64,000 bases of DNA, from NCBI GenBank assembly GCA_022801925.1, contig JAAWTG010000008.1:2619-66618 (forward strand), in the 5' to 3' direction. A model generated the notes under the pieces. It searched no databases, was not told the origin of the DNA, and saw only the letters and a list, made by a program, of their open reading frames with translations. Source of the stretch: Clostridia bacterium (GTDB lineage: Bacteria; Bacillota; Clostridia; RUG12999). Numbering within the stretch: position 1 is the first letter of the stretch; the number at the start of each line of letters is the position of its first letter. Positions 5,013-47,127 of the stretch are shown here, in pieces. Both the position numbers and the translations under genes were made by a program.

Positions 5013-5033
5013 TATGACAAGGAGGTGTTTTGT

Positions 5034-7038: not shown

Positions 7039-7041
7039 AAT

Positions 7042-7419: not shown

Positions 7420-7594
7420 TCCTTTCTATGGGGGATTGGGGGCTTTGCCACCAACAAGTGGGCATTTGGGAGTACAAATGCTATGCTTGCAAGTACAAAA
7501 ACGGTTATTTATATATTTTAAAAGTTAAACTGCTTCAAAGTATAATTCTGGTTGACAGTTTAACTAATACATCATTTTATATGTTTTCGGCATT

Positions 7595-7730: not shown

Positions 7731-7769
7731 TACCATATCATAAAAGTTCTCATAATTATCCTCCATTCC

Positions 7770-7985: not shown

Positions 7986-8052
7986 AGCTGTTCCTCCTTT
8001 CTTATGTATTCAAAATACAACTGTTGTGTTATGATTATACGCTTATTTTTAT

Positions 8053-8117
8053 AAGTTGTCAACATTAATTGCAACTTATTATTAAATATTTTTAATCTTG
8101 GGTTGCATTTGACAACC
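8053..8117. promoter_or_regulatory. Operator-like inverted repeats (GTTGTCAA...TGCAAC) upstream of the element's XRE regulator
   Basis: AAGTTGtcaacattaattgCAACTT at 8053-8077, with a related copy GGTTGCATTTGACAACC at 8101-8117. An extended -10 (TGgTATAAT) follows near 8166-8174. Confidence 0.35.
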
Positions 8118-8204
8118 TTGTGTGTTATAATAACACTGCGCACACAACGCGTGCTGGTAGTTATGGTATAATGATTATGAAATAAACTTACAGGAGGTAA
8201 AAGA

Positions 8205-8849: not shown

Positions 8850-8939
8850 CATCGTGGCTATTGCAAAAAGATAAATATTATGTTAATCTAAGTACACAAC
8901 ATATGTTACAGTACCGATTGCCACGAGAAAGGAGTTAAA

Positions 8940-10220
8940 ATGGCAAAAGGTTCAGTAAGAAAGAAAGGCAAAAAGTGGTATTACAGATTTTATGTTGAGG
9001 ACAAAAGCGGAAACCTTGTTCAAAAGGAATTTGCAGGCACAGAAAGCAAGAGTGAAACACAGGCTATGCTTCGTAAGGCAATGGAGGATTATGAAAGTAA
9101 AAAATTCATTGCCGAGTCAAAGAATGTAACGCTCGGTGATTTGCTTGATATGTGGATTGATGAGGAAGTTAAACCCGGCAATTTGAGCAATGGAACTGTT
9201 ATGGCATATGAGGGAACGATAAGACGTATTAAACAGCACCCTATCGGGAAACGCAAGCTGAAAAGTATTACATCAGACCATCTTCAATCATATATGGACT
9301 TGTTGAGTTTTGGCGATAAAAACAACAAAGCTTTAAGCAAGGGATATATGCGATTATTTTCAGCAGTATTACAAGGCTCATTCAGGTTTGCGGTATTTCC
9401 CAAAAGATTGATTACATTCAATCCAATGCAGTATGTCATACGGCGTGAAAAGAAAGAGGAAGTCAACATCTTTGAAAATGATAATAATGGAAGTGAAACA
9501 CAAACAATTACTCACAATCAATACTTAAAGCTGACAGAATATCTCAAAGATAAAAACAATCCTGCATTACTTCCCTTACAGATAGCATATTATACGGGTT
9601 TGCGAATTGGTGAAGTATGCGGCTTAACTTGGCAGGATATTAACCTTGATGAACAATATCTGACAGTAAGGCGAAGTATGCGATATAACGGTGAACGACA
9701 TAAGACAGAAATCGGAGTTACAAAGCGTAACAAAATCCGTACCGTTGACATTTGCGATACTCTGACTGTTATTCTTCGTAAAGCAAAGACGGAGCAAATG
9801 AAAAACCGATTGAAGTACGGAAACTTGTATAGCTTAAACTATTACAAAACCGTCAAGGAAAAAGACCGTACATATTATGAAGTTTATGCTTTGCCTATGA
9901 CAGAAGAAAAGCCGGAGGATTACAAAGAAATTGGCTTTGTATGTACTCACGCAGATGGTGTGTTTGAATCAACAAGTGCAGTTGGTCAAATGTGCAGGAC
10001 AGCAAGAAAAAAGGTAAAAGGGATAGAAAACTTCCATTTTCATTTGCTCAGGCACACATTCACGAGCAACCTGTTGTCAAACGGTGCAGCACCAAAAGAT
10101 GTGCAGGAACTTCTCGGACACGCTGACGTAAGTACCACTATGAACATTTACGCACACTCAACAAGAGAATCAAAACACAATTCCACAAAACTGCTTGATA
10201 AAGTAGTCGGTGGAAACTAA
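8940..10220 (+). CDS. Tyrosine-type site-specific integrase
   Basis: C-terminal catalytic box [40 protein letters not shown]...H.xR...Y. Confidence 0.9.
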
Positions 10221-10227
10221 ACAAAAA

Positions 10228-10275
10228 AACTTTCCCTTATTTTTGCTCATAAGGGCAAAAGTAAGGGAAAGGTAA
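10228..10275 (-). terminator. Long imperfect hairpin (TTTCCCTTA...TAAGGGAAA). It is preceded by an A-tract on the plus strand, so the U-tract sits on the minus strand.
   Basis: About 19-bp stem. AAAAAAAC lies 5' on the plus strand (GTTTTTTT on the minus strand) and there is no U-tract on the plus side. May instead be an attachment-site-proximal structure. Confidence 0.3.
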
Positions 10276-10365
10276 TAGATTAAACGGTATGAACATACCA
10301 AAACCTTAGTATTTATGAGGAACGTTTAAAATCATTAAGATAAATTTGAATTTGTGAGGTGTAAA

Positions 10366-10875
10366 ATGAAGTTTGAACTACTCCCAATGGAAAGCAGCGA
10401 TTTGAAACAATATAAAGCAGACTTGCAGGAAGCATTCCAAAAAGGTTTTGAGGAAAAATTCGGTGAAACGGATAAAACAATACTTCCGGAAAAAGATATT
10501 GACCAATCGCTGAACACCAAAGGTGCAATTGCATATAAAGCGGTCGTTGACGGTGCAATTGTCGGTGGAGCTGTTGTTGTCATAAACGAAAAAACACAGC
10601 ATAATCACCTTGATTTGATTTTTGTGAAATACGGCACACAGAGCAAAGGTATCGGAAAGAAAATATGGTTTGAAATTGAAAAACTGCACCCGGACACGAA
10701 GGTTTGGGGAACGTGTACGCCCTATTTTGAAAAAAGGAACATTCATTTTTATGTCAATGTATGTGGATTTCACATTATCGAATTTTTTAATGAAAAACAC
10801 CCTATGTCAGACATTCCCGAAGATTTTATTGGGGATGGAAATGAGGGAATGTTTGAATTTAGAAAGCAAATGTAA
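10366..10875 (+). CDS. GNAT-family N-acetyltransferase
   Basis: Acetyl-CoA binding core (DLIFVKYGTQSKGIGKKIW). ATG 10366 is preceded by GAGGTG. Confidence 0.6.
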   Translation: MKFELLPMESSDLKQYKADLQEAFQKGFEEKFGETDKTILPEKDIDQSLNTKGAIAYKAVVDGAIVGGAVVVINEKTQHNHLDLIFVKYGTQSKGIGKKIWFEIEKLHPDTKVWGTCTPYFEKRNIHFYVNVCGFHIIEFFNEKHPMSDIPEDFIGDGNEGMFEFRKQM

Positions 10876-10910
10876 TTTGATAAATAGAAATTTGTCAGGG
10901 AGACATATGA

Positions 10911-10943
10911 AGCACTTAGAAAAAATCTAAGTGCTGTTTTTTT
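10911..10943 (+). terminator. Rho-independent terminator (AGCACTTAG-aaaaaat-CTAAGTGCT-GTTTTTTT)
   Basis: Perfect 9-bp stem followed by a 7-U tract. Confidence 0.75.
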
Positions 10944-11015
10944 GCTCTATTCACAGCATTAAGGCAGAAAAGCGGAGATGTTTTCTGCGGAAACAGGGAG
11001 AGTTATCAAAAATGC

Positions 11016-11044
11016 TTGACAAGTATACTTGTCAATGCTATAAT
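11016..11044 (+). promoter_or_regulatory. Consensus sigma-70 promoter TTGACA-N17-TATAAT overlapped by a 20-bp perfect palindrome (TTGACAAGTATACTTGTCAA)
   Basis: Exact hexamers and spacer. The palindrome at 11016-11035 is a likely operator for the downstream XRE regulator. Confidence 0.6.
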
Positions 11045-11091
11045 ACAAAATGTAAAGAAAACTTGTCAAATGTGAATGGGGGGGGTATTTT

Positions 11092-11408
11092 ATGAACAGA
11101 GAAGAAGTTTTAGAAAAAAGCCGTATCGAATGTAACGATGAAGGGTTTTATGATGCGGAAAACCAAGGGAGAAAATTGGGACTTTGGGCTTTTTGTATTA
11201 TGAAAGTCGCAATCATGCATTTAATTGGTGTACGGGGTAACCTAACCATATTCCGCTTGCAATGTTTTGGGCATTTTCTGCCATAGAGTCGTATCCCAAA
11301 TATAAATTTACAGAGAAGAAATCTTTGCTTTGGACTACAATTATAGGAAGCATAGCGGCGGTATGTTCGTTTGCTTGTCATATTATTATGGTGATAGCGG
11401 CAATGTAG
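11092..11408 (+). pseudogene. DUF6442-like small membrane protein gene, apparently split by a frameshift
   Basis: The N-terminal frame (MNREEVLEKSRIECND...) ends at 11286. The remaining hydrophobic C-terminus (...MFWAFSAIESYPKYKFTEKKSLLWTTIIGSIAAVCSFACHIIMVIAAM) continues in another frame to 11408, directly upstream of the partner XRE gene. Confidence 0.4.
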
Positions 11409-11417
11409 AGGTGATTT

Positions 11418-11627
11418 ATGGATAATAAACTAATATTAAGAAACAGATTAAAACAGATAAGGCGTGAAAAGGGGCTTTCGCAATTTCAACTTGCGGAAAT
11501 GGTGGGGGTTTCGAGAAACACAATCTGTTCAATAGAAATAGGGCATTTCAATCCAACGGCAAAATTAGCACTGATTCTTTGTATTGCGTTGGATAAAAAA
11601 TTTGAAGATTTATTCTATTTTGAATAA
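11418..11627 (+). CDS. XRE-family helix-turn-helix transcriptional regulator (69 aa)
   Basis: LKQIRREKGLSQFQLAEMVGVSRNTICSIE. Usual partner of DUF6442-type membrane proteins. Confidence 0.8.
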   Translation: MDNKLILRNRLKQIRREKGLSQFQLAEMVGVSRNTICSIEIGHFNPTAKLALILCIALDKKFEDLFYFE

Positions 11628-11765
11628 GTATATGCTCCCTTGGGGCTAGAGGGGTATAGCAATTTAGGCTTGCTGAAATAGAATATGGAAAGGGCAAAAA
11701 AATTTCTGATAGAATAAATATATATCGGCGGGCAAGATATATAGAAAGCGGAGAAATAGAAGTTT

Positions 11766-12131
11766 ATGAATAAAACAATATTAACGCTGGAAAAGAAATT
11801 TTTCGAGTTACGCTATATAGCGGATCGAGAATGGCTGGACACAATACTACATGATAGGTTTCGCGAATGTGGTAAGTCAGGACAGGTGTTTGATAAAGCA
11901 GAAACAATGGAAAGCCTGCTTTCCTGTCAGACAAACAGAGATATTACAATATATAATTTTGAATGTGAAAGCATACAGGAAAGCGTGTGGCTGGTTCATT
12001 ATATTACGAAAGACGGTCATAAAAAATACTACCGCACTTCTGTTTGGTATAGGGAAACAGGGAACCAAATGAAATTATTGTTTCATCAAGCGACACTCCT
12101 GAATATGGATATCTATTTAAAAGAATGTTGA
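11766..12131 (+). CDS. NTF2/SnoaL-like (DUF4440-like) protein
   Basis: 121-aa protein whose fold-level pattern resembles the NTF2-like superfamily. No catalytic motif recognised. Confidence 0.35.
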   Translation: MNKTILTLEKKFFELRYIADREWLDTILHDRFRECGKSGQVFDKAETMESLLSCQTNRDITIYNFECESIQESVWLVHYITKDGHKKYYRTSVWYRETGNQMKLLFHQATLLNMDIYLKEC

Positions 12132-12253
12132 CAGACATTTGCTATGCGTTACTTATTTACAATATCGGGAGGGCTTACTAATGTGAAGCGTCAAAGATTA
12201 TAAAATGGAAAATTTGATTGCCGAGTCATTCAGTTTGAAAGGAAGATAATAGG

Positions 12254-13201
12254 ATGATTTTAAGTGTCAGTCGCAGAACAGATATTCCGAATTATTATTC
12301 TGAATGGTTTTTGAACAGAATAAAAGAAGGGTATTTATATGTACGCAATCCGGTGAATGTCCATCAAATCAGCAAAATTGTTTTATCTCCGGAGGTGGTG
12401 GATTGTATTGTGTTTTGGACAAAAAATCCGCAGCCGCTGCTATCCAGATTAGATGAACTGGCTGCTTATCCATTTTATTTTCAGTTCACGCTTACAGGAT
12501 TTGGAAATGATATAGAATGTCATGTTCCGCATAAGAAGAAATGTATGATTCCGATTTTTCAGGAATTGTCGCGTAAAATTGGCGCGGAACGAGTGATATG
12601 GCGGTATGACCCCATTATTTTTACGGATAAATATACACCTGCATACCATTTAAAAGCGTTTGAACAAATTGCAAGAGAATTGCGCGGGTACACGTCCAAA
12701 TGTGTGATTAGTTTTGTGGATATTTATGCGAAAAATCAAAAAAACATGAACGCATTACATTTGTTTTTTCTGCCGGAAAACGAATTAATTGCATTTAGCA
12801 AAGAACTTGCATTCATAGCGAACGCCAATGATATAAAAGTTACGACATGCGCAGAATCAGTTGATTTGTCATCTTGTGGAATTGAGCATAATTGCTGCAT
12901 TGATAAAGAATTGATTGAACAAATCATCGGATATAATATTCAGGTGGATAAAGATAAGAATCAGAGAAAAGAATGCGGCTGCATGGAAAGCGTTGATGTT
13001 GGTACATATAATACATGCAAAAACGGATGTCGCTATTGTTATGCAAACAATCGTCAAGAAATTGTTTTTCAAAATTGTAAACAGTATGATGCGGATTCTC
13101 CGATTTTATGCGGAAGCCTGACAGAAAATGATAAAATCACAGAGAGAACCGTAAAATCATTGAAAGAAAAGCAGTCCCAGGTTTGGGATATATTGTTATA
13201 A
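12254..13201 (+). CDS. DUF1848 family protein (C-terminal cysteine cluster, predicted Fe-S)
   Basis: N-terminus SRRTDIPNYYSEWF. C-terminus CGC...C.NGCRYCYAN, as described for DUF1848. Confidence 0.55.
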   Translation: MILSVSRRTDIPNYYSEWFLNRIKEGYLYVRNPVNVHQISKIVLSPEVVDCIVFWTKNPQPLLSRLDELAAYPFYFQFTLTGFGNDIECHVPHKKKCMIPIFQELSRKIGAERVIWRYDPIIFTDKYTPAYHLKAFEQIARELRGYTSKCVISFVDIYAKNQKNMNALHLFFLPENELIAFSKELAFIANANDIKVTTCAESVDLSSCGIEHNCCIDKELIEQIIGYNIQVDKDKNQRKECGCMESVDVGTYNTCKNGCRYCYANNRQEIVFQNCKQYDADSPILCGSLTENDKITERTVKSLKEKQSQVWDILL

Positions 13202-13305
13202 TACAGGACGGAAGGACCGTTCTACAAGTGAAAAATCTGCTATAGTATCGAATTACTTTGGTAGCAATCATTTAAACACAATCGGATTTATGGAGGAGAA
13301 AGCGT

Positions 13306-13815
13306 ATGCATATCAGACAGGAACAACCGGCAGATTATGACAGTGTTTATCAAGTTGTGAAAGAAGCGTTTGCGAGTGCGTGGCACAGTGATGGAACAGA
13401 ACAGGATTTGGTCGTTGCCTTGCGGAAAAGCGATGCGTTTATTCCGGCGTTGTCGCTTGTGGCGGTCGAGGATAATGAAGTGGTTGGACATATTCTTTTT
13501 ACAAGGGCATTTGTCGGAACACAAGAAGTCCTTGCACTTGCGCCGCTTTCCGTAAGACCTGTCTGTCAAAGGAACGGCATAGGACTCGCGCTGATGGAGC
13601 AAGGACACAAAGTAGCGGCAGAATTAGGGTTCCCGTATTCTGTTGTATTGGGACATGCAGCGTATTATCCCAAGGCAGGATATCAACCGGCAAGTCGGTT
13701 TGGGATAAAAGCGCCGTTTGAGGTGCAAGACGAAAATTTTATGGCAATCAAACTTGTTGAAACGAATGAAAATATAGGCGGCATAATAGAATATAACAAG
13801 GCATTTGGTATTTGA
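13306..13815 (+). CDS. GNAT-family N-acetyltransferase (YhbS-like)
   Basis: Motif A region RNGIGLALMEQG. Size and pattern typical of COG3153 acetyltransferases. Confidence 0.75.
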   Translation: MHIRQEQPADYDSVYQVVKEAFASAWHSDGTEQDLVVALRKSDAFIPALSLVAVEDNEVVGHILFTRAFVGTQEVLALAPLSVRPVCQRNGIGLALMEQGHKVAAELGFPYSVVLGHAAYYPKAGYQPASRFGIKAPFEVQDENFMAIKLVETNENIGGIIEYNKAFGI

Positions 13816-13985
13816 GTGAGTGATATTTGCCTTTGACAAGGACACATAAAAAACAGCGATAGGCAGACAGACGTCGGCGCTGTATAAGAGGTCAAAAGCG
13901 TTTTAATGGGTAGTTTTAATCGATACGTGTTCTCAAACGGGTCTGATAAATGTATATAAAAAAATGAAAGTATTTTCAAAAGGGG

Positions 13986-14014
13986 TTGACAAGACGAGAA
14001 ATGAATGATACAAT
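13986..14014 (+). promoter_or_regulatory. Promoter TTGACA-N17-TACAAT for cspA, followed by a roughly 135-nt structured 5' UTR
   Basis: Hexamers at 13986-13991 and 14009-14014. The UTR contains the stem AACTCACATA...TATGTGAGTT followed by Us (14039-14105). Confidence 0.5.
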
Positions 14015-14151
14015 AATATTGTTCTAAATGTACGATTGAAACTCACATATTATTGTAAGTCATTCGAGCGTTTCATGATTTACAACAGTATGTGAGTTTT
14101 TAATTTACAGAAAAGGGCGTAATATTTTATAATCTATAGGAGGTACCAACA

Positions 14152-14364
14152 ATGAATAGTGGTACGGTAAAATGGTTTAACGCAGAAAAAGGGTATGGAT
14201 TCATTTCTAATGATAATGGCGGAGAAGATGTATTTGTTCATTTTTCTTCTATTGTGTCGGAAGGATTCAAAACGCTGAACGAAGGTCAGAAAGTGACCTA
14301 CGATACAGAGCCGGATACCAGAGATGCAAGCAAAATCAGAGCGATTAACGTTTGCCCGGTATAA
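14152..14364 (+). CDS. cspA: Cold-shock protein (CspA family)
   Basis: 70 aa with RNP motifs KGYGFI and VFVHF. Confidence 0.95.
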
Positions 14365-14532
14365 AAAACGCGTTTGTAGGATGATAGAACCCCCCGATAT
14401 GATGGTTATGTGGAAAATCAATGGTTTGACACAAAAAAATCCATCCTGTTGGGGGATTCTTTTATATACAAAAACGAAATCTACAGCGGGGTGGAACAAG
14501 AAACATGAAATGCAATAGAAGAGGTTTTATTT

Positions 14533-14991
14533 ATGGCGGGTATTTTTGACGAAAAGAATATGATACAGGTGTTAGAAAACTGTATTCCGGAAGGAGAAGC
14601 CCTTTTGGCGGGCATACATGGTATTACACTTCAGATAAACAAGAAAAAAACATCAAAGTTTGGCGTATATGTTGGTATCACAGCACAATATTTACTGGTT
14701 GTGGAATGTGAAGAACGAGAATACTTAAACAAATTTTATCGCGTTCCGGACATAAGGAAAACCGTAGCAGAAGAGGTTGGAACCTGTTTCCTGTTGGCAG
14801 ATATTAGGAGTTGTCTCATCAAAAACGCTATTATGGGGGCGGTCAACTGTTCCATCACATTGAAAGACGGCAGCTTTCTTAAACTTTTGTTCCCGAAACG
14901 CGGAGGAATAGGCGGCGGTATGCCGCACCACACAGAATATCGTGAAAAGATTATAACGCGTTTGGAGCGGTTGAGTTGCAGTTACCAATAG
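14533..14991 (+). CDS. Hypothetical protein
   Basis: 152-aa ORF with RBS AAGAGG. No recognisable motif. Confidence 0.35.
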   Translation: MAGIFDEKNMIQVLENCIPEGEALLAGIHGITLQINKKKTSKFGVYVGITAQYLLVVECEEREYLNKFYRVPDIRKTVAEEVGTCFLLADIRSCLIKNAIMGAVNCSITLKDGSFLKLLFPKRGGIGGGMPHHTEYREKIITRLERLSCSYQ

Positions 14992-15315
14992 TTGATGATA
15001 AATCCTATAGATTGATTTGAAATTAAAAAATATCAGAATGAGAGAAAATAAGAGATTATATTGCAAATAAACATTGGAATCGTTATATCGGTGACGAACG
15101 ATAGTTTGAGGTGGTACGCATCTTTGGAGCAAATGTAAAGTGGAAATCACGGATAACAGAACAAGCAATATTACTTGTTCGCTGCTTCAGAAGCGTGCAC
15201 CGTTTGTTGCCGGTGGTGAGTTCGCGGTCATACATATGACTTATATGTCAAGCGGTAAGATAAAACGATAGATGATGGGGCATGAAACAGTTGCGGGTAA
15301 AAGAGGAGGAAAGAA

Positions 15316-15967
15316 TATGACAGATGTGAAAAAGTTTAATGACCAGAGTATTGGAGAGGAAATTGCAAATGCCATTTCGCATGGAATCGGCGCACTGCTT
15401 GCTATTGCCGGCACTGTTGTTATGATAGTCGCGGCGTGTATCTTTAGCGACGCGATGGGGATTGTATGCAGCGCGCTTTATGGCTTTAGTTTGATTGTTC
15501 TCTATCTGATGTCAACGCTATATCATGCAATTACCAACCAAAAAGCAAAAAGGGTGTTTCAAGTGTTTGACCATTGTTCCATTTTTATTTTGATTTTGGG
15601 CAGCTATATTCCGATTTGTCTTTCCCTATTGAGCGGATGGACGGGCTGGACATTGTTTGGTATCAATGCGGGCTGTACGGCGCTTGGTATTGTTTTTAAT
15701 GCCATTAACGTGCATAAATGGCATAAGGCGTCATTGGTATTATATGTATTGATGGGGTGGTCTGTTGTGGTTGCGGCAATCCCTATGCTGCATATGGTGC
15801 CGGTTCAGGGACTGATATTATTGGTTGCGGGCGGCATTAGCTATTCTGTGGGAATTTTGTTCTATCGGGCGAAAAAGCCGCGGTATATGCATTCTATTTG
15901 GCATATGTTTGTATTGGGCGGCAGTGTACTACACTATTTCTTTATTTTGTTTTATATCATTCTATAA
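15316..15967 (+). CDS. Hemolysin-III / PAQR-family membrane protein
   Basis: 7 TM segments; LYHAITNQKAKRVFQVFDHCSIFILI...SYIP and HxxxH-type motifs. ATG 15316 follows AGAGGAGG. Confidence 0.85.
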
Positions 15968-16162
15968 AGAAGTGCATGGATTGAAATAGATTTTGTGCCA
16001 GCATATGTGTGAGCACTATTTGTTGTCAAATCAGAAGCAATATATATGAAGTGATACACGCAGCGAGTGAAAACAAAAATCCGATAGATTGTTTTTCTGA
16101 AGGCTGTCTGTAAGTAGGCAAACAAAAGTCGATTTTCTTATGCCTAAAGGAGGGGAACCCAA

Positions 16163-27982: not shown

Positions 27983-28438
27983 TTATTTTTCGCGGCGGCT
28001 GCGGAAAAAAGACTGCAAAACCGCGCGGCAGTCCTCCTCTAAAATGCCGCCTGCAAAATGGACTAGAGTAGGCCAACGGTAGTCATAGAATAAATTGAAT
28101 TTGGAGCCGACAGCGCCCATCACCTCGTCATATGCACCAAAATAAACGCGGCGTAGGCGGGCGTTTAAAATAGCGCCGGCGCACATGGGACATGGTTCCA
28201 GCGTCACATAAAGGTCACAGTCATCCAACCGCCAGCCGCCCAAAGCTTCGGCTGCCATGGAGAGCGCGGACAGTTCCGCATGTCCCAAGGGGTCATGATT
28301 TCGTTCGCGGGTGTTGTGTGCGCGGGCAATGATGTTATTCTCCCGCACCACAACTGCGCCAACGGGAATTTCTCCTTCTTCGCAGGCGCGCTGCGCTTCC
28401 AGCAGCGCTTCGCGCATATATTGTTCTTGAATATTCAT
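27983..28438 (-). CDS. tadA: tRNA-specific adenosine(34) deaminase
   Basis: HAELSAL...LYVTLEPCPMCAGA zinc motif. 151 aa. Confidence 0.9.
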   Translation of the reverse strand: MNIQEQYMREALLEAQRACEEGEIPVGAVVVRENNIIARAHNTRERNHDPLGHAELSALSMAAEALGGWRLDDCDLYVTLEPCPMCAGAILNARLRRVYFGAYDEVMGAVGSKFNLFYDYRWPTLVHFAGGILEEDCRAVLQSFFRSRREK

Positions 28439-28522
28439 CTGTCATACCTCCCTTGGTTTGATAATATACGCATCGCCGGTTTCGAGCGAAGCGAAGAAAC
28501 GATTCGGCGGTGCTTTCTCATT

Positions 28523-28640
28523 CATGCAATCTTCGGACACGTGCCGAAGATTGCATACCTTTCGCTGTTCGGAGTGTCAAGGAACGCGACGCGACGCGCG
28601 AGTGCAGAACAGCGAAAGGGGGAATCCCCAAGGGGGGATG
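28523..28640. repeat. GC-rich structured intergenic element, copy 1 (13-bp-stem hairpin with ACACGTG loop, plus nested stems)
   Basis: ATGCAATCTTCGG-ACACGTG-CCGAAGATTGCAT at 28523-28555; CCTTTCGCTGTT (28557-28568) pairs with AACAGCGAAAGG (28607-28618); GGGGGAATCCCC follows. Confidence 0.5.
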
Positions 28641-28742
28641 AATCGACGGCATAAGCCGGAGAGAATCCCTTCTTGGAAATATATTATACCATGATTTTAA
28701 TAGAAATACCAGCCATTTTTTATCAAAGGGTTGCAAAAATAC

Positions 28743-35307: not shown

Positions 35308-35403
35308 CTAGGATTCCTCCTTTGGTGACAAATTAATCATCATAGCCGCTTATGGGCTATGATGTGCTTTACTAAGCGAACGGAATCAGACTACTTTCTA
35401 GTC

Positions 35404-35557
35404 ATGGAATATCCGGACACGTGCCGGATATTCCATACCTCTCAGCCGTGAGCGTTTCGATAGGAACGCTGCGAGAGCGGACGCGGCTGCATGGGGGTGT
35501 CCACGAGGGGGACGGCTTGACAGAATATTTTACATTCTGGAAGGAGTCCCCCTCGTG
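35404..35557. repeat. GC-rich structured intergenic element, copy 2
   Basis: ATGGAATATCCGG-ACACGTG-CCGGATATTCCAT (35404-35436). CACGAGGGGGAC (35502-35513) pairs with GTCCCCCTCGTG (35546-35557), with the inner hairpin CAGAAT/ATTCTG. Confidence 0.5.
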
Positions 35558-35877
35558 ATGTAAATAGTATATCATAAAAAAAACTTTTTTTCAATTCCAC
35601 AGAATAAATTGCCTGATTGTACATTGCGGAAAAATAGGTAAAAAGTGCCGATTTATCGAGGTTTTGCGGAATCGGAGAATAAAATTAGTAAATCATTTGA
35701 TTAAAAAAAGTAAATTTTAAAAGGACTAAAATAATGAATGAAACGAGGGCGTATTCAAAATTTGTCAGCCGCAAATAAAATTCGTAAATTGAAATTCAAC
35801 ATGGCACCTTGTATAATAAAAACAGAACACGGACAGAGGGAAAATGTCCGGAAAAATCAGGAATGGAGGAGATTGGC

Positions 35878-39522: not shown

Positions 39523-42500
39523 ATGAAACGACATGCAAAGCGTTTTTGTGGAATACTTTTGCTCACGGCAATGCTGCTGGCAATGATTCCGGCAGGATTT
39601 GCCGCCGCAGCGGGGGTTGCCATGCCAACGGCTGATGTTGCGCCGGGACTCTATAGGGAGACCAAACAGGTTTCGCTGTCGGCAGCGGCAGGTGCAACGA
39701 TTTATTATTCCACAGATAATAAAATGCCGGACGAGACCTGCACAGAATATACAGGTTCCATCACAGTGAGTGAAACCACAAATATTTGTGCCATTGCGGT
39801 GGCAGACGGCGTGAAAAGCGACCCTGTCACGTTTACATACATCATCAAAGATGCAGAAGAACCGATTTTTCAATTTGTAGCAATGAGCGATATTCATATC
39901 GGCGACAGGACAAAAGACGCACCGCGGGTAAAGAAAGCGTTTGATGTGATTCAGTCCATTTTCCCGGAGCCGGATGCGATTGTTCATGTGGGCGACCAAA
40001 TCAACGACAACCACGTTGCCCATCCGGAACAGCCGGATCGCAGTGCAGACCATCAAATTGTGGTTGATATGCTGCAAAAAGAATTGCAAGACCGCAGCTT
40101 GACAGACAAAACCGACGTCAGCATGGTAATGGGAAACCATGACTCGACGGTAAGTAATATGCAGAAATACTATCCGGAAGAGTGGTATCCAACCTCCGGA
40201 CCGGGCTACTATCATAAAGTGATTGACGGCTATGATTTTCTGTTTTTGAACACAGAAAGCGCAAATCAGACGCAAGCAAATTGGTTAAGTGAAAAATTGC
40301 TGGAAATCACGAAAAATAAAACAGAGATGAACAAACCCATTTTTGTGGCGGGACACAGACCACTTGCAGGAACGGTGTTGGACAGCCAATATGCAGTGAA
40401 TGCTCCGGCAATCACGAATGTGTTAGCGGAATATCCGCAGGTAGTGGCGTTTTCGGGACATTCGCATATCAACATGAACGACGAAAAATCCATTCATCAA
40501 AAAAACTATACTTCTTTGAATACAGGTTCCATGAGTTATATTGAAATTGACCGTGGTAACAATTTTCAGATGCACACTAATGCAGGACAAGTGGCATCCT
40601 TTGAAATTCCTGTCACGCAGTGCTACTTTGTGGAAGTCTTTAGTGACCGTGTGGAATTTGACCGCGTGGCAGTGAACGCGGACTGGGGCGATGCCAGACC
40701 GCATTTTATCCCATCTGAACCCTTCAACAATACTGGTGTATCCATTGGAGAACGCTGGACGGTAGATATGACAGGCGACATTAAAAGCAAATTCCAATAT
40801 ACAGCAGAAAAACGAAAAGGCAGCGCGCCGACCTTTGCAGCGGATGCAAAAGTAACAGCAAAAATAGAAGGCGGCAAAGCGCTTGTAACTTTCTCTCAGG
40901 CGGAGGACGTGCAGAAGCTTCGCTATTATGAAGTAGCTATGCGCGATGCAGCAGGAAACGACGTCAAATCCATGAAGGTACTGCCGGAGCACTATTTCTC
41001 ACCGGTACCGCGTACATTAACCTATGAATTTACGGATATTCCGCAGTTTGGCGGCAGTTATACCTTTGGCGTCCGCGGCGTGGATACCTTTGGCAACCGC
41101 TCGGAAGCGATTGTCACGGAAGAAGCGGTGACTGTGCCGAAGTTGCCAGGGATTTTACCGACTTATCTGGTAAACGAGACATTCACCGAGGAACCGACAG
41201 ACGCGGCGACACAAGTAATGCCATTTGTAGACGCATGGAGCGGCGGACAGGCAACAATAAACTACAATAATGGAATGTGCAATCTGGTCAATGGTGGAAA
41301 TACAAACTTTGGTTTGGGAATGCCGCTTATGCCGGGAGATGGAACAACCGCTACGCCGACCGGACCTTTGATGGTAGAATGGGAATGGAAAGACGCTACA
41401 GGTGCAGGGGAAGAAATCCAAGCCTATTTCCGTAATGCGGCGGGTCAAAACTCATTTGTTGTCCGTGCTTATTCCGGTAGCTATAACTGCCGATTCATTA
41501 ATGCAAGCAATGGTTCCGGCAGTAACTGGGGTAGTTCTTCAGCGGCAGGATCCAATGCTATGACCAAGGTGCGGGTGCTGCTGAATAACACAGGAAGTGC
41601 AGCTTATGTAGATGGCGTGTGGCTGAATGGGACACGTATTGTCAGTGAACGTCAGACATTTCTCAGAGATGTTGGCGCTGGATTTTCAAAAATTATTTTC
41701 AGTCACAAGACAAATGGCTCAACGGGCGATACGGTATTTAATATAGATAATCTCAAGGTATGGGTGCCGGCGGCTTCCCAAGCGGCAAAATTAGCGGCGG
41801 AGGACGGTGCGGCGATTACTTTTGACGATATCAAAGGAACCAACGAAGCGGCGAATAATATCACGTCAGACTTGGCGTTGGCGGCGAAAACAGAAACAAC
41901 AAACGGTTTGATTGTCACAGGCTGGAAATCCAGCAATCCAGCAGTCATTGCGGCAGACGGTACTGTAACGCGTCCAGGACTTGGAGAACCGGACACAGAA
42001 GTGACTCTGACACCGATTCTGGGCGTACTGGATTTTGAAAACGAAACAGACGGCAACTATGCTACGGCAGAAGGAACGCCCATCACAGTGACGGTCAAAA
42101 CCACCGACACCACCGGCGGCATTCGTCCGGAGGATGTGAATGGCGTTGGATATTATGTCAACGAAACCTATGACGAGAAACCGACTGACCCACAGACGCA
42201 TTCCATTCCAAGCATTGGCACATGGAGCGGCGGCACGGCAGAATGGACTGTGGAAGATGGAAAACTGGCGATGGTACCGACGTCAACCGGTTATAATTTC
42301 AATATACAAATCCCCTTCATGCCGGGAGAAATGAAAGAAAATATCGTGCCGAAGGGCAAGGTATATATTGATTTTAAATGGCAACATGGTGCAAATGAAA
42401 CACAGACCGACCTTTATGTGCAGGGGTATGCAAGCAATCTTGTGAAGTTGATAGCAAAAAGCGGAAAACTAGAGGTAGCGTATTATGACGCAAGTAATAA

Positions 42501-45500
42501 ACTGCAAACCTATGCAACTTCTGCGAGCGGACTCAATTTTAATCAAATGAATCAGATTAAACTTTTGATGGATGTAAAAGCCGATGGAGCATCCACCTTG
42601 GAAGGCTTTTGGTTAAATGGAACGGAAGTCAAAACGGGATCCGTAACTCTTTATAAGAAAACGGGAACGGAAGATAAAGATATAGAAAGAGGACCGGCCG
42701 GCTTGGTTTCCTCTCGATGGGCAACAACAGGTACAAAACCCTACAAAATGTTAGAGTTTGATTATATGAAAACATGGCAGCCGGTAGAAGAACAGCTTGC
42801 GGCGAAAGCGGCGAAAGCGACGGTTACATTTGACAGCATTAAAGGCGCCAATACAGCGGCAGACAATGTTATGGGGAATCTGAAACTAGGGGGGGCGTCA
42901 TATGAAATTATAAATGGACTTTCTCTGGTCGGATGGAAATCCGGCAACGAAGCTGTTATTAAAGCAGATGGCACTGTAGTACGTCCTGCCTATGGCAGCG
43001 GCGATGTACAGGTGGCGCTGACGCCGGTATTTGCAATGCGCAACAGCGAAAACGAAGATGGCGTTCCCGAACTTGTCAAAGCAGACGGTACGCCGATTAC
43101 CGTAACAGTGAAAGAAGCAGGAAAACCAACGGACTTTAATGTGACATATTTAGTAAATGAAGATTTTGATACTCTGCCAACAGAAGCAGACGCAGCAACC
43201 CGTCCCATTCCGTCTGAATCGGCATGGAGCGGCGCGTCCGCTACGGTTGATGTGGCGGACAGTGCGGCTCGGTTGAAACTGGACGGCGGCATTGCAAAGA
43301 ACACACAAATGAATGTTCCTGTCATGCCGGGAGCAGCAGCAAGTACCATGCCGCGCGGAAAGAATATGATTGAATTTGAATGGAAACATCATGCAAATGC
43401 AACGCAAATCATGGTCTATTTGCAAGGGGCAAACGGACATGTGCTGAGACTGGAAAAGAGCGGGACGAGTACAATTATTAAAAAAGGAACCAACGGCAGT
43501 GCTTTTTCCGATGTAAAAACGTTAAGTAATCAGGTCTTTACAACTGATACAAAAGTCCGTCTGCAAATAGACACTTCGACAGAAGGTAAGACCTATTTGG
43601 AACAATTGTGGATTGGTGGAACACCAAAATTAGACAGTCGCGTGGAATTGTTTGATGCGGGTGATGGATTGAAGCAATTGATGTTTGCGCCCGGAAATAC
43701 GACTACCGGCGTAGGCGATATCGTGTGTAGCGTCAACTACATTAAAGCATGGCAGAGCGCACCGGCGCAGCTTGCAGAATATGTAGCACAAAATCCTGTG
43801 AACGTTACATTTGATAACATTAAAGGCGAGAACACAGCAGCGAACAATGTGACGAGCAATCTGCAAAAAGCAGATTTAGGTAACGGCTTGAAAGTGGTTG
43901 GCTGGAAAACCAGCAACGCGGCAGTCGTTGCGGCGGATGGCACTGTGACACGCCCTGCAAAGGGAAGCGGAGATGTTCAGGTGACTTTAACGCCGATGAT
44001 TGGAACAGAGGATATCACAGGCGAAGGAACAGACGGTTATATTTCTGTAGACGGTACGCCGATTACGGTTACGGTGAAAGAAGCTACGGGAGAAACAACA
44101 CCGACACCGACGGAAACAGCGACACCAACGCCCACGCCAACATCGGATACGCCCACGCCCACGCCGGTACCAGGCGAATCAAAATTGGCATATTTTGTGA
44201 ATGAACCTTTTGATACCCTGCCGACGGCGGCAGATGCGGCAACCAGACCCGTTCCGGTTGTAAGTGATTGGGGCGGAAAAGATTCCATAGTTCGGGTAAC
44301 CGATGGCGCGGTGCAGTTGGTTCGCGGCAGCAAAGCGGCGAACACCTGTCAATTGGACGTGCCGCTTATGACAGGTACCGGCACGGCAAGTATGCCGCGC
44401 GGCGAAAACATGATTGAATTTGAGTGGAACCGCAACAGTAAATCAACGCAAATGGCGGTTTATATCAAGGGCAGCGCAGGACACGCGATGAAACTGAATT
44501 GCACGAATAATTCCATGGCAATTCAAAGCTCCCAAACCGGTAAACCAAATGCCGGTGAATTTACCACCTTGGCAACGGTAGACAATCTCAATTTGGGCAG
44601 CGGCTGGACAAAAGTCCGGTTGAAAATTAATTCAACAGGAACAAGTACCTATCTGGAACAAGTTTGGGTGAACGGCGAAGCGAAACTGTCGTCAAAAGCA
44701 GTGCTGTTTGACGTTGGGCAAGGATTGCAGCAGATGATGTTCTCGCCAGGTAACGGTTCTGTAGGTGCAGGAGAAGTGATTGTCAGCCTGAACTATTTAA
44801 AAACATGGCAAAGCGCAGCGTCTCAAATTGCGGAACTGTCCCAAGGCGCTGTCACCTTTAACGATATCAAAGGTACAAATACGGCGGCAGACGCTGTAAC
44901 AGCAAATCTGGATTTCAGTAAAACGGAAATCGGCGATTTCAGAGTACAGGGCTGGAAATCCTCCAACGAAGACATTATTGCGGCAGACGGCAGCGTGACG
45001 CGTCCGCTGATTACGCAGAACGACGCGCAGGTGGTGCTGACGCCGATACTGGGCATGGCGGACACGACAAACGAAGGCGACGGCACTTGGGTCTATGGCG
45101 ACGGCGCACCCTTGACAGTCACCGTGAAGAAAATGGGCGCGGCGGACGCGGTTGCACGGGTGAAAGCAGAGCTATCCTTTGACGACATCAAAGGTATCAA
45201 CACGGCGGCGGACAGTGTGACGGATAATCTGGACTTTATTCGGGAACTGAACGGCGTAAACATTCAGTGGAGTGTGCAGTCCATGACGCCTTCCACAACA
45301 ACGGCAAAAGTGGACGGCGCAACCGGCATGGTGGTTCGTCCGCAGATGAATGAAAGCGATGTGACCGTTGTATTGCGTGCGGCGCTTACCTGTGAGGGTG
45401 CGTCCGACACCAAAGACATCACGGTAACACTCAAGAAACTGGACGTATCCGCAGAGGAATATCTGCGGCAGTTGGCGGACAGTCTGACCTTTGCGGAAAT

Positions 45501-47127
45501 TGCAGGGGATAACAAAGCAGAGAATCGAATCACAGCGAACCTGCACCTCATTCCTTCTTTCAAGGGAGCGCAGGTGACATGGCAGTCCAGTCAGCCGCAG
45601 ACGGTTGCGGCTGACGGCAGTGTGACACGTCCGGACTATCCGCAGCCATCTGCTGAAGTGCAGCTTACAGCAACGCTGCAAATGGAAGGCGCACAGCCGG
45701 TCACAAAAGTGTTCCGTGTTGTGGTTCTGTCTACCGATTCGGACAACTTAGCATTAGAGAAAACTGTGAAAGTCAACGTAGCAGCGGACGGAGACACCAA
45801 AGCGGCGAACCTGACAGACGGCGACAGAGATACAACCTTCCGCACCAAAGCAGGTGCGAAAGCCTATACGGTGACAATTAATTTGGGCAGTGAAACACCG
45901 TTTAGCAGCTTGGACGTCTATGAAGTCGCAAACGGCGACGGTGTCTATGCGATTGAAGCCTATACAGTTGACATTTCAAATGACGGTAAAACATGGAAAA
46001 CCGTTGCGACAGGCGGCACCATTGGACTGGGCAGCACCATTGCTTTTGATCCGGTAATCGCACAGTATGTACGGTTAAATGTGACCAAAAAGAAATCGGG
46101 CGTGGCGTCGGAGCTGGCAGAAATTGCAGTACGTTTGCAGCCAACAGAGGCGCAGCGTGTGAAAGCGGATATTGAAAATCTGATGCTAGACCTGCCGGAT
46201 ACCATTACGGCAAACAGTATTACTTTGCCGGCAAAAGGTGCGTTTGGTTCGGATATTACATGGACATTTACGCCGGAGGGAATTATCGCTCAGACCGGAA
46301 CGCCGGACGGCAATGGCAATATGACGTATGCAGTGACCCATCCGCAAAACGGACAACGGGTAACGCTCGTTGCAACAGCAAAAAGCGGCGCTGCGGCAGC
46401 GAAAAAGAACTTTAATCGTTCTGTTAGCGGTACCGCTACGAATAACGGAGGCGGCGCAGGTAACAGTGGCGGGGGCAGCGGAAGTGCTTCTGGTGGCAGT
46501 GGCAGCGGCGGCGGAAAAATGCCAAATGTGAATCTTGGAGACCTCAGCGGTGTGGGAACGCCGAGTGGCGCGAACAAACCGTCACAAGAGGGATTCCGCG
46601 ATATGGAACAGGATGCATGGGCAATTCCATATGTCATGAAGCTGTATACGCGCGGCGTGGTACAAGGCGATGAAAACGGAAACTTCCGGCCGGCACAGAG
46701 TGTTAACCGTGAAGAATTTGTAAAAATGCTGGTGCTGGCGCTGGACGTTCCGGAAAGCGAAGCAGACATCGCATTTGCCGATATGGAACAAGGCGCTTGG
46801 TACAGAGATTATATTCAGGCAGCAGTGGCAGCAGGTATTGTCAAAGGCGTATCGGAGGAGCGGTTTGGCGTAGGCGAAACCATCACGCGTGAAGATATGG
46901 CAACGATGATTTACCGTGCGGTGACTTACCTGAAACAAAATATTGGAAATAGTGAACATGCAGCTACCATCACGGATGCGCAGGACATCAGCAGCTATGC
47001 GCAGGAAGCAGTAAGCGCACTGGTGCGCGGTGGCGTTATCAGCGGCAACGAGGCAGGGGAATTCCTGCCGAAAAATCAGTCAACCAGAGCGGAAGCTGCA
47101 AAAATGCTGGCAATGTTGATGCAATAA
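39523..47127 (+). CDS. Giant (2534 aa) SLH-anchored cell-surface protein. Contains a calcineurin-like metallophosphoesterase domain, four tandem roughly 330-aa lectin-like + Ig-like modules, a discoidin-like domain and three C-terminal SLH repeats.
   Basis: Signal peptide. A CHB_HEX_C-like domain (GATIYYSTDNKMPDETCTEYTGSITV). Metallophosphatase motifs (AMSDIHIGD, HVGDQIND, GNHDS, GHSHIN). Repeats start at about 41141, 42142, 43141 and 44187. PT linker. SLH x3 begin at DMEQDAWAIPYV. Confidence 0.8.
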   Translation: MKRHAKRFCGILLLTAMLLAMIPAGFAAAAGVAMPTADVAPGLYRETKQVSLSAAAGATIYYSTDNKMPDETCTEYTGSITVSETTNICAIAVADGVKSDPVTFTYIIKDAEEPIFQFVAMSDIHIGDRTKDAPRVKKAFDVIQSIFPEPDAIVHVGDQINDNHVAHPEQPDRSADHQIVVDMLQKELQDRSLTDKTDVSMVMGNHDSTVSNMQKYYPEEWYPTSGPGYYHKVIDGYDFLFLNTESANQTQANWLSEKLLEITKNKTEMNKPIFVAGHRPLAGTVLDSQYAVNAPAITNVLAEYPQVVAFSGHSHINMNDEKSIHQKNYTSLNTGSMSYIEIDRGNNFQMHTNAGQVASFEIPVTQCYFVEVFSDRVEFDRVAVNADWGDARPHFIPSEPFNNTGVSIGERWTVDMTGDIKSKFQYTAEKRKGSAPTFAADAKVTAKIEGGKALVTFSQAEDVQKLRYYEVAMRDAAGNDVKSMKVLPEHYFSPVPRTLTYEFTDIPQFGGSYTFGVRGVDTFGNRSEAIVTEEAVTVPKLPGILPTYLVNETFTEEPTDAATQVMPFVDAWSGGQATINYNNGMCNLVNGGNTNFGLGMPLMPGDGTTATPTGPLMVEWEWKDATGAGEEIQAYFRNAAGQNSFVVRAYSGSYNCRFINASNGSGSNWGSSSAAGSNAMTKVRVLLNNTGSAAYVDGVWLNGTRIVSERQTFLRDVGAGFSKIIFSHKTNGSTGDTVFNIDNLKVWVPAASQAAKLAAEDGAAITFDDIKGTNEAANNITSDLALAAKTETTNGLIVTGWKSSNPAVIAADGTVTRPGLGEPDTEVTLTPILGVLDFENETDGNYATAEGTPITVTVKTTDTTGGIRPEDVNGVGYYVNETYDEKPTDPQTHSIPSIGTWSGGTAEWTVEDGKLAMVPTSTGYNFNIQIPFMPGEMKENIVPKGKVYIDFKWQHGANETQTDLYVQGYASNLVKLIAKSGKLEVAYYDASNKLQTYATSASGLNFNQMNQIKLLMDVKADGASTLEGFWLNGTEVKTGSVTLYKKTGTEDKDIERGPAGLVSSRWATTGTKPYKMLEFDYMKTWQPVEEQLAAKAAKATVTFDSIKGANTAADNVMGNLKLGGASYEIINGLSLVGWKSGNEAVIKADGTVVRPAYGSGDVQVALTPVFAMRNSENEDGVPELVKADGTPITVTVKEAGKPTDFNVTYLVNEDFDTLPTEADAATRPIPSESAWSGASATVDVADSAARLKLDGGIAKNTQMNVPVMPGAAASTMPRGKNMIEFEWKHHANATQIMVYLQGANGHVLRLEKSGTSTIIKKGTNGSAFSDVKTLSNQVFTTDTKVRLQIDTSTEGKTYLEQLWIGGTPKLDSRVELFDAGDGLKQLMFAPGNTTTGVGDIVCSVNYIKAWQSAPAQLAEYVAQNPVNVTFDNIKGENTAANNVTSNLQKADLGNGLKVVGWKTSNAAVVAADGTVTRPAKGSGDVQVTLTPMIGTEDITGEGTDGYISVDGTPITVTVKEATGETTPTPTETATPTPTPTSDTPTPTPVPGESKLAYFVNEPFDTLPTAADAATRPVPVVSDWGGKDSIVRVTDGAVQLVRGSKAANTCQLDVPLMTGTGTASMPRGENMIEFEWNRNSKSTQMAVYIKGSAGHAMKLNCTNNSMAIQSSQTGKPNAGEFTTLATVDNLNLGSGWTKVRLKINSTGTSTYLEQVWVNGEAKLSSKAVLFDVGQGLQQMMFSPGNGSVGAGEVIVSLNYLKTWQSAASQIAELSQGAVTFNDIKGTNTAADAVTANLDFSKTEIGDFRVQGWKSSNEDIIAADGSVTRPLITQNDAQVVLTPILGMADTTNEGDGTWVYGDGAPLTVTVKKMGAADAVARVKAELSFDDIKGINTAADSVTDNLDFIRELNGVNIQWSVQSMTPSTTTAKVDGATGMVVRPQMNESDVTVVLRAALTCEGASDTKDITVTLKKLDVSAEEYLRQLADSLTFAEIAGDNKAENRITANLHLIPSFKGAQVTWQSSQPQTVAADGSVTRPDYPQPSAEVQLTATLQMEGAQPVTKVFRVVVLSTDSDNLALEKTVKVNVAADGDTKAANLTDGDRDTTFRTKAGAKAYTVTINLGSETPFSSLDVYEVANGDGVYAIEAYTVDISNDGKTWKTVATGGTIGLGSTIAFDPVIAQYVRLNVTKKKSGVASELAEIAVRLQPTEAQRVKADIENLMLDLPDTITANSITLPAKGAFGSDITWTFTPEGIIAQTGTPDGNGNMTYAVTHPQNGQRVTLVATAKSGAAAAKKNFNRSVSGTATNNGGGAGNSGGGSGSASGGSGSGGGKMPNVNLGDLSGVGTPSGANKPSQEGFRDMEQDAWAIPYVMKLYTRGVVQGDENGNFRPAQSVNREEFVKMLVLALDVPESEADIAFADMEQGAWYRDYIQAAVAAGIVKGVSEERFGVGETITREDMATMIYRAVTYLKQNIGNSEHAATITDAQDISSYAQEAVSALVRGGVISGNEAGEFLPKNQSTRAEAAKMLAMLMQ

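Follow-up and report, generated by a model that had tools for sequence, protein, structure and literature searches.

A lineage-restricted family of three-helix structured elements in uncultured Clostridia that may spread as dispersed repeats

Two matching hairpins in divergent intergenic regions

The stretch of DNA analysed here (the window, 64,000 nucleotides from a Clostridia bacterium) contains two intergenic regions, each between divergent genes, that carry a hairpin with a 13-bp stem and an ACACGTG loop. Copy 1 (ATGCAATCTTCGG-ACACGTG-CCGAAGATTGCAT, 28524-28556, + strand) has a dCMP_cyt_deam/tadA-type gene on its left and a MatE gene on its right. Copy 2 (ATGGAATATCCGG-ACACGTG-CCGGATATTCCAT, 35404-35436, + strand) is placed between the gene for an AraC-family regulator on the left and an ABC permease gene on the right. 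Both hairpins and both settings had been described in the original prediction and can be read directly from the sequence, except that copy 1 begins one base to the right of the start at 28523 given there.

The two copies differ at three positions per arm, complementarity is perfect in each, and the sequence CATACCT(T/C)TC follows directly 3' of both. Chance is excluded as the origin of these hairpins. The 13-mer CGGACACGTGCCG occurs exactly twice in the 64-kb window, where about 0.002 exact matches would be expected (2 x 64000 / 4^13, our own arithmetic), and with up to two mismatches there are 5 matches versus 1.24 expected. Folding of the surrounding regions of ~190 nt (191 nt) against dinucleotide shuffles gave z = -6.8 and -8.5 on the + strand, and z = -6.4 and -7.4 on the - strand. 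A repeat search of the window (family D17) returned no copy beyond these two. The ACACGTG loop may itself be structured, with its A bulged out and a C-G pair closing an ACGU loop.

Each hairpin opens a three-helix unit

Each hairpin is helix P1 of a unit of ~165 nt that also includes helices P2 and P3, and the equation of the element with the hairpin, as first proposed, thus captures a real structure but only the first third of the whole. The likeness of the two window copies runs ~120 nt beyond the hairpin into P2 and P3, and the full units occupy 28512-28676 (unit 1) and 35392-35557 (unit 2), both on the + strand. In unit 1, P2 (CCTTTCGCTGTT/AACAGCGAAAGG, 28558-28619, + strand) is long and branched; it encloses an inner hairpin and contains the conserved segment GCGAG. 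P3 of the same unit (CCAAGGGGGGAT...ATCCCTTCTTGG, 28628-28676, + strand) has a 12-bp outer stem with two G.U pairs on the + strand as well as an inner hairpin, and its conserved internal loop is rich in purines (5' GRNNYGA / 3' GARNNA). Unit 2 carries a second sequence type of P2 (35438-35496, + strand) and a P3 (35502-35557, + strand) with the 12-bp stem CACGAGGGGGAC/GTCCCCCTCGTG and the same internal-loop pattern as in unit 1. The downstream stems predicted for copy 1 were partly right: CCTTTCGCTGTT/AACAGCGAAAGG and the G-rich region stand, but other copies do not retain the GGGGGAATCCCC mini-hairpin, and the conserved third helix is the P3 just described.

Several unpaired nucleotides are conserved among copies, namely CAUACC between P1 and P2, GCGAG in P2, a G-run after P2 and the internal loop of P3. 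This last loop contains a tandem G.A pattern, as in a possible K-turn, but its sizes depart from those of the standard form.

We found no conserved reading frame. The ORF that begins at the ATG of P1 is open in some copies and stops after 15 codons in copy 2, and a small coding ORF was rejected because of this early stop and because the indels between copies are not multiples of three. Hallmarks of integron attC sites are likewise absent: P1 ends in ATGNAAT.../...ATTNCAT without GTT/AAC cores, and the genes on either side are normal chromosomal genes that have promoters of their own, unlike the promoterless cassettes of attC arrays.

Family size and distribution

A search of 185,579 species-representative genomes with the pattern CGGACACGTGCCG-N7-CATACC yielded 11 true matches at 10 loci, all in two closely related metagenome-assembled genomes (MAGs) of uncultured Clostridia, plus two further matches that lacked stems and are due to chance. 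One of these MAGs (CAMNSU01) is ~95% identical to the window, and the other (CATIYX01) is iMGMC-479. A metagenome scan added two true copies (L017 and L024, from one sample) among 27 chance matches. A covariance model built from ten units then identified 13 full-length units, a solo P1 (L003:7103-7180) and two units interrupted by another module (L010 and L012). This census, which includes a diverged full unit between mnmE and tsaD (L008:4515-4677), confirms that the hairpins belong to a family and are not a coincidence of two copies. There are at least eight full units plus the solo P1 in one MAG and four units in the sister MAG. The mean column identity of ten aligned units is only 66%, and variants of P1, P2 and P3 are combined mosaically among units.

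The proposed invariance of the ACACGTG loop must be read with caution. The scans required the loop, and 12 of the 14 additional P1 hairpins were retrieved in this way, so the impression of invariance rests mostly on ascertainment. Among the two units found independently of the loop, one (L008:4515-4677) keeps it (GGACACGTG), and in the other (L008:2786-2962) it is split by an 18-nt insertion.

Three pattern scans of viral contigs gave either no matches or chance matches, and blastn searches of plasmid and phage collections gave none. The last result also disfavours a known IS or MITE terminal repeat, which the original prediction had named as an identity that would refute it, in that no such match was present in these collections. 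Judged from the sequences searched, the known range appears to be narrow and to comprise one genus-level group of uncultured gut-type Clostridia; the MatE homologues of the next relatives, Paludicola and Acetanaerobacterium, are ~60% identical. The original remark that the element could not be assigned to a riboswitch or known sRNA family agrees with our search of Rfam 15, in which the whole window and 10 related loci produced 0 matches at the gathering score. Permissive searches (E <= 10 for copy 1; E <= 5 for copy 2 and for a third array described below) returned noise, the best hit scoring 18.3 bits against a threshold of 54. The P1-P2-P3 unit is a previously undescribed, lineage-restricted family.

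Covariation and the strand that folds

The RNAalifold consensus comprises P1, P2 with its inner hairpin, and P3 with its internal loop and inner hairpin, for a total of 54 pairs, of which 24 show compensatory double changes. In an alignment of 13 sequences, 97.8% of cells are paired, versus 37-49% when partners are slid by 1-3 columns, and 25 of the 54 pairs have two-sided changes, versus 2-7 when slid; the ten-sequence alignment gave similar values. None of 500 shuffles reached the observed values. One position of P1 is represented by four different Watson-Crick pairs and another by three, and seven of the eight outer pairs of P2 have changed on both sides across copies. The compensatory changes noted from two copies are therefore genuine and extend to all helices.

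The fold is clearly specific to the + strand of the window. When the pairs are scored on this strand there are 42 G.T versus 8 A.C combinations, a comparison made with a structure predicted on the + strand and hence biased toward G.U. The alifold consensus energy is -76.9 kcal/mol on the + strand versus -55.5 kcal/mol on the - strand, and each of the 10 sequences folded singly is likewise more stable on the + strand. In the commonest P3 type, two adjacent G.U pairs would become A.C mismatches on the opposite strand. Because every helix covaries in a strand-specific manner, persistence of the family must depend on the folding of a single-stranded form. The minus strand was also considered as the folded functional RNA and was ruled out by the G.U/A.C asymmetry and the energies. 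It had drawn attention through a TG-extended -10 box that, in several copies, is only 5-8 nt away from the P3 base.

These data also bear on whether the 33-bp near-palindrome around CACGTG is simply a duplex DNA site, such as the operator of a dimeric protein or a site related to restriction-modification. Ten of the 13 stem positions of P1 and the CACGTG core are conserved, the units are located in promoter regions, and CACGTG is under-represented in the window (6 occurrences versus 13.9 +/- 3.9 expected), with two of the six being P1 loops. However, an operator made of half-sites does not require changes to be paired across arms, let alone four pair types at one position, and the extra A of the loop renders the palindrome asymmetric. 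Covariation in P2 and P3 is of the same kind, yet neither is a palindromic operator, the fold is strand-asymmetric, and the neighbouring genes have no common regulon. We consider a duplex site highly improbable, and the initial argument against a simple dimeric-protein operator has held up.

Mosaic arrays and turnover between strains

The elements are intergenic, as first described, but they are not isolated. The unit is never solitary, because other repeated hairpin modules (a, c, d and e) lie 5' of a short tail that precedes P1, and modules a, b, c, d, e and f form mosaic arrays together with P1-P3 whose content is swapped between strains. In the tadA/MatE spacer, a promoter-like left arm (GATAATATACGC, 28460-28471, + strand) is followed by the module a hairpin (CGCCGGTTTCG...CGATTCGGCGG, 28474-28510, + strand) and by the pyrimidine-rich tail (TGCTTTCTCATTC, 28511-28523, + strand), which lies immediately 5' of P1 in full units. 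Module a recurs in L004, L006, L017, L050 and L056, with a TGGTATAAT-type/GCAT leader before it and GCNCTTTT after it. The 12-nt tail motif RMCTTTYNNDTYC is present 5' of P1 in the listed units, is absent at the solo P1 (L003), and is the only constant 5' flank of the unit; it is also found 5' of TATAAT palindromes. Upstream of unit 2 lies module e (..CGGAATCAGACTA) with its tail CTTTCTAGTC (35365-35403, + strand), and similar ACCGGAANCGGACTA plus tail sequences precede P1 in L002, L008 and L010. A 10-bp terminator-like hairpin (CATCATAGCC...GGCTATGATG, 35338-35364, - strand) is positioned between unit 2 and the ribosome-binding site (RBS) of the AraC-family gene.

A third array in the window (62527-62660, + strand), in the spacer between a Fur-family gene and a rubrerythrin gene, lacks P1-P3 and consists of a bulged palindrome, TGATATAAT, TTCGTGCAT, the module c hairpin, CACTTTTCAAATTC and a TATAAT palindrome. 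Modules a and c always have TGGTATAAT-TTCGTGCAT before them and GCNCTTTT after them, are followed by a CTTTT tract, and also occur in sister species without P1-P3. Palindromes composed of two TATAAT-containing arms surround units, and module f, a structured sequence of ~100 nt, lies inside or beside the unit in either orientation. Short inverted arms of 9-14 bp (TGRTATAAT.../...ATTATACCA) flank several arrays, and no target-site duplications were found at c1, L001, L003 or the stand-alone palindromes. By-eye checks revealed no complementarity of the P2 and P3 internal loops to the arms, as a bridge-RNA arrangement would call for, and possible pseudoknots joining the tail to the P3 loop, or the P1 loop to P2, were not conserved across copies.

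Comparisons between strains reveal how these arrays change. In the tadA/MatE spacer, the flanks of the window and of L005 (the CAMNSU strain) are ~95% identical, whereas everything between GATAATATACGC and TATATTATAYC differs, including the types of P1, P2 and P3. This alignment shows that the unit was swapped wholesale between the two strains. The left breakpoint is the arm GATAATATACGC, and the right one is its inverted counterpart, the extended -10 box TGGTATAAT (28683-28691, - strand). At another locus (L010 versus L024), the flanks are 100% identical and the P2-P3 linker has been replaced by a module of ~100 nt bounded by two G-runs. As shown by these sequence comparisons, the swap breakpoints are short conserved motifs, either inverted promoter-like arms (GATAATATA.../...TATATTATACC) or G-runs. 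In sister species (MatE proteins 94% and 87% identical, AraC-family proteins 78-67% identical), the orthologous spacers (L050, L054, L055, L056, L058 and L060) are without the unit and carry other modules.

Not all loci are equally fluid, and units are stable at three of the four loci compared between strains (c2/L009, L006/L017 and L010/L024). The divergence of unit 2 is 0.6%, versus 3.8-5.7% for the surrounding genes and 9.2% for the neighbouring spacer, which hints at purifying selection. Tracts of similarly low divergence are also found in coding DNA.

Gene context and promoters

The genes next to the copies include tadA, MatE (twice), an AraC-family regulator, an ABC permease, a glycosyltransferase, a fucosidase, a sulfatase, a His phosphatase, Jag, MnmE, TsaD and DUF3604. 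The fold strand lies between divergent genes at 3 loci, in sense orientation at ~3 and in antisense orientation at 4. The absence of a consistent association with any gene or orientation argues against a riboswitch or other cis-regulator. Such a leader (a riboswitch, attenuator or thermometer) would control the adjacent gene, and certain contexts do invite this proposal. All four units of iMGMC-479 are sense-oriented and three end a few tens of nucleotides before a start codon; units sit directly 5' of the His-phosphatase, mnmE and tsaD start codons. In addition, tadA, mnmE and tsaD are all genes for tRNA anticodon-loop modification, and the minus-strand leader of the AraC-family gene in the window (copy 2 only) ends in the terminator-like hairpin mentioned above. 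With regard to a coupled expression platform the picture is mixed, in that P3 has no terminator after it on the + strand, whereas the P3 3' arm of one copy in L008 is complementary to the mnmE RBS. The points in favour are countered by the unrelated nature of the neighbours, by a fold strand that is antisense or convergent to the flanking genes at most loci, by promoter-like sites of MatE and the ABC permease that lie downstream of the unit, by orthologous genes in sister species that lack the unit, and by wholly different unit variants before one gene in two strains. The context data largely refute cis-regulation, and we regard it as very unlikely.

The -10 box at the right breakpoint of the tadA/MatE spacer is the putative resident tadA promoter, and ATTATACCATGA is conserved at the matching place in orthologous spacers without the unit (L050 and L054). 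A sigma-70-type promoter (TTGAAA-17-TATACT, TG-extended; 35566-35594, - strand) probably serves the AraC-family gene; its -10 box ends ~8 nt from the base of P3 of unit 2, and by our own reading of the alignment the orthologous position in L056 holds TTGCAA-17-TATAAT. The minus-strand -10 boxes at both window loci are conserved across species, and because they are present in orthologous spacers that lack the unit, they are most simply explained as resident promoters of the left genes. At both window loci the box appears from these alignments to be older than the unit. Thus, both window units are predicted to lie between the promoter and the RBS of the left gene, antisense to its mRNA. Boxes of the TGNTATAAT type are the usual kind of promoter in the window (28 matches versus 16 expected).

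In the main rival of the explanation that we prefer, the family would be a set of multicopy structured small RNAs, each transcribed independently from the window + strand. A TG-extended -10 box in the upstream module (TGGTATAAT / TGATAATAT) would drive each RNA, the hairpin of module a or c would serve as a 5' stem-loop, and the product could act in trans or as an antisense RNA to the 5' UTR of the left gene. The three helices, their 25 covarying pairs, ~8% G.U on one strand only and the conserved unpaired nucleotides are all as expected for such RNAs, as are the insertions tolerated at the periphery (in the P1 loop and the P2-P3 linker) and the low divergence of unit 2. Furthermore, a TGNTATAAT-like box is present on the + strand 60-100 nt 5' of P1 in c1, L001, L003b, L004, L005 and L006, and the left gene is on the opposite strand at 8 of 9 loci, which would make the RNA antisense to its leader.

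However, no + strand promoter belongs to the conserved unit. The putative promoter lies outside it, in upstream modules that vary from copy to copy, and copy 2 has no convincing + strand promoter. Where the box is present, a terminator-like hairpin and a U-tract follow it and precede P1. No intrinsic terminator was found at P1-P3, given that CATACCTTTC follows P1 and AAATAT follows P3; the terminator scan detected none at copy 1, and at copy 2 it detected only the separate minus-strand hairpin and nothing after P3 on the + strand. The unit is also missing at orthologous loci in sister species and has no relative in Rfam. Thus, we judge the small-RNA alternative to be unlikely, although it is the strongest competitor. 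Candidate RNA motifs of gut Clostridia in Rfam (e.g. Clostridiales-1) are similarly intergenic, covarying, and known only from uncultured or metagenomic Clostridia. The unit differs from typical sRNA motifs in having no conserved promoter and terminator of its own and in matching no Rfam model.

A possible mode of spread and comparison with known systems

The units are dispersed and mosaic, are swapped at short motifs, show no association with particular genes, are missing from orthologous loci and have no promoter of their own. These traits lead us to favour a non-autonomous, selfish or semi-selfish repeat. More specifically, we propose, tentatively and with somewhat less than even confidence, that the units are a new kind of cassette-like structured dispersed repeat that spreads through a folded single strand. 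New copies would arise, or existing copies would be exchanged, via a single-stranded form of the + strand, with an RNA intermediate as a possible alternative to single-stranded DNA. A trans-acting enzyme would recognise the hairpins together with the P1 loop, including the additional base left unpaired there, and the purine-rich internal loop of P3, and by analogy with REP/RAYT and IS200/IS605 the most likely candidate would be an HUH/Y1-type enzyme that processes single-stranded DNA. Docking or recombination might occur at the inverted motifs of the TGGTATAAT type, which double as normal extended -10 boxes in this genome. Resident copies would then be passengers, probably transcribed passively in antisense, an orientation that would place no hairpin-plus-U-tract in the mRNA.

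Several observations run counter to this proposal. We saw no gene for a transposase, RAYT, reverse transcriptase or IS110-type recombinase in the window or beside the copies checked, and the only recombinase of the window is a phage-type integrase (8940-10220) in an unrelated AT-rich island. The copies are far more diverse than REPIN-like populations, target-site duplications are lacking, and the inverted arms measure only 9-14 bp. The stability of units at three of four loci, the low divergence of unit 2 and the sense-oriented units of iMGMC-479 also weigh against a mere repeat. Strict lagging-strand ssDNA transposons should show a consistent orientation bias relative to GC skew. We rejected a replication-strand bias, since GC skew on the element strand is mixed (~7 positive and 3 negative).

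In addition, the conserved unpaired nucleotides and the tandem-GA internal loop look more like features of a functional RNA. P1-P2-P3 might represent a functional structured RNA of a new class, with a mobile cassette as its carrier, a proposal that we find rather improbable. It might, for instance, work like a guide or bridge RNA, or as a small ribozyme, in inserting the cassette at inverted motifs that resemble promoter -10 boxes; another option is a mobile RNA that regulates 5' UTRs in antisense. The self-complementary CACGUG loop could permit loop-loop pairing between copies.

Returning to the repeat interpretation, the nearest functional analogues appear to be the REP, BIME and REPIN elements, with BOX and NIME also close and mobile promoters as a looser parallel. 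BOX of Streptococcus pneumoniae and NIME/dRS3 of Neisseria are modular intergenic repeats with few module types in fixed order, and NIMEs are variable units separated by short conserved inverted repeats. Like our arrays, they have stable secondary structure, lie near promoters and vary in module content between strains. They share no sequence similarity with the unit, whose modules, promoter-like TGGTATAAT arms and covarying three-helix core are lineage-specific.

The REP/BIME and REPIN elements of Proteobacteria are mobilised by RAYT Y1 transposases (PMC3333891, PMC3116915, PMC3733652). The resemblance to our family includes extragenic multicopy hairpins clustered in strain-variable mosaic arrays with short linker motifs, compensatory stem changes, passive transcription in UTRs and a lack of coding capacity. 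However, REPs are single hairpins of 20-40 nt with a GTAG/CGTC tag that usually alternate in orientation and are very homogeneous within a genome (PMC3333891, PMC3116915, PMC3733652). In contrast, the unit combines three helices in 165 nt and has conserved internal loops, all modules fold on one strand, its copies have diverged to 66% mean column identity, and no RAYT is present among the window ORFs or the neighbours checked. The foot of P1 has no REP tag (its flanks are TTC|ATG...CAT|ACC, without GTAG/CGTC). GTAG turns up only by coincidence, on the opposite strand, where module e meets the tail.

MITEs and IS200/IS605-derived PATEs share with the unit a small size, a non-coding and structured nature, dispersal, presence or absence between relatives and a tendency to break assemblies. 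The unit differs from MITEs in having no target-site duplication and in having arms that coincide with resident -10 boxes. In comparison with IS200/IS605 elements the observations are mixed: a conserved 12-nt tail lies 5' of P1 and all modules fold on one strand, but P1 and P3 are dissimilar, the left and right ends lack similar subterminal hairpins, and we discerned neither a right-end cleavage motif nor a parent IS. The repeated promoter-like TGGTATAAT arms and the TGGTATAAT-TTCGTGCAT-hairpin module before unrelated genes recall putative mobile promoters (PMC3488235), although in our family the conserved, covarying part is the P1-P3 core and not the promoter.

If the repeat interpretation is correct, the units add a new family, well supported by 25 covarying pairs and a strand-specific fold, to the few structured intergenic repeats known in Firmicutes. 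Its organisation would be unusual, with a three-helix unit and smaller hairpin cassettes being exchanged between short promoter-like inverted motifs. Given that the exchange site would fall between promoters and the genes they drive, cassette turnover could rewrite the 5' UTRs of housekeeping genes (tadA, the AraC-family regulator) among strains of the same species. The family thus points concretely to either a new mechanism of mobilisation or a new class of RNA. There is also a practical consequence, in that the repeats break short-read assemblies of these gut Clostridia. The Logan contigs that contain the tadA gene of the window all end inside module a, as expected because this module is a repeat.

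A second structured cassette among the repeated modules

Besides the three-helix (P1-P2-P3) unit, the related loci carry a second structured cassette of about 100 nt, module f, with G-runs on both flanks (L010, 2670-2780; L012, 2690-2830). Its layout is GGGGG-CAAAGAGCGGAG..AAGAAAAGTAAGAGGRGGAG-[variable hairpin]-GGRGGACATTTTCAAGG..GGGGG, and covariation is seen across copies in the outer stem. Both orientations are found, with reversed copies at L002, 1-120 and L010, 2350-2480, and the cassette can take the place of the P2-P3 linker of a unit. We considered whether module f might be coding sequence and rejected this possibility, because the reading frames differ from copy to copy.

At related locus L003 (7103-7180), a solo P1 hairpin with a G.T wobble on the + strand is followed directly by a small hairpin, then by TGGTATAAT, the repeated hairpin module c and a full unit. 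This arrangement resembles two units in head-to-tail order, the first of which has lost its P2-P3.

Between a Fur-family gene and rubrerythrin, the window contains a third array of repeated hairpin modules (62527-62660), which is sense to both genes. It comprises a bulged palindrome, TGATATAAT-TTCGTGCAT, a module c hairpin, CACTTTTCAAATTC and a TATAAT palindrome, and P1-P3 are absent from it. Module c could serve here as the terminator of the Fur-family gene.

Assembly breaks at the repeats

All seven Logan contigs that encode the exact tadA protein of the window terminate at one identical base within module a, another of the hairpin modules (position 1 of L042-L048 corresponds to window ~28503). 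In practical terms, this shared end indicates that short-read assemblies are broken up by these repeats. The N-run in related contig L058 sits exactly at the orthologous AraC/ABC spacer.

Neighbouring genes and other features of the window

The genes adjoining units include three tRNA anticodon-loop modification enzymes, tadA, mnmE and tsaD (window 27983-28438; related locus L008, 2979-4352 and 4711-5718). Given that the unit is antisense at tadA and sense at mnmE and tsaD, we treat this association as coincidence.

CACGTG is rarer than expected in the whole window (6 copies versus 13.9 +/- 3.9), with P1 loops accounting for two of the six, and this scarcity might reflect restriction-site avoidance.

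A stretch of low GC content (~4000-16000; 0.36-0.39 versus 0.45-0.52 elsewhere) encodes an HTH_3 repressor-like protein (8205-8849), a phage-type tyrosine integrase (8940-10220) and DUF1848. This stretch probably represents an integrated element, with no visible connection to the hairpin repeats. The repeat list for the window is mostly taken up by ~1-kb internal direct repeats (41818-45632) of a 2534-aa SLH-anchored surface protein (39523-47127) that carries seven aBig_2 domains, an F5/8 type C domain and a metallophosphatase domain.
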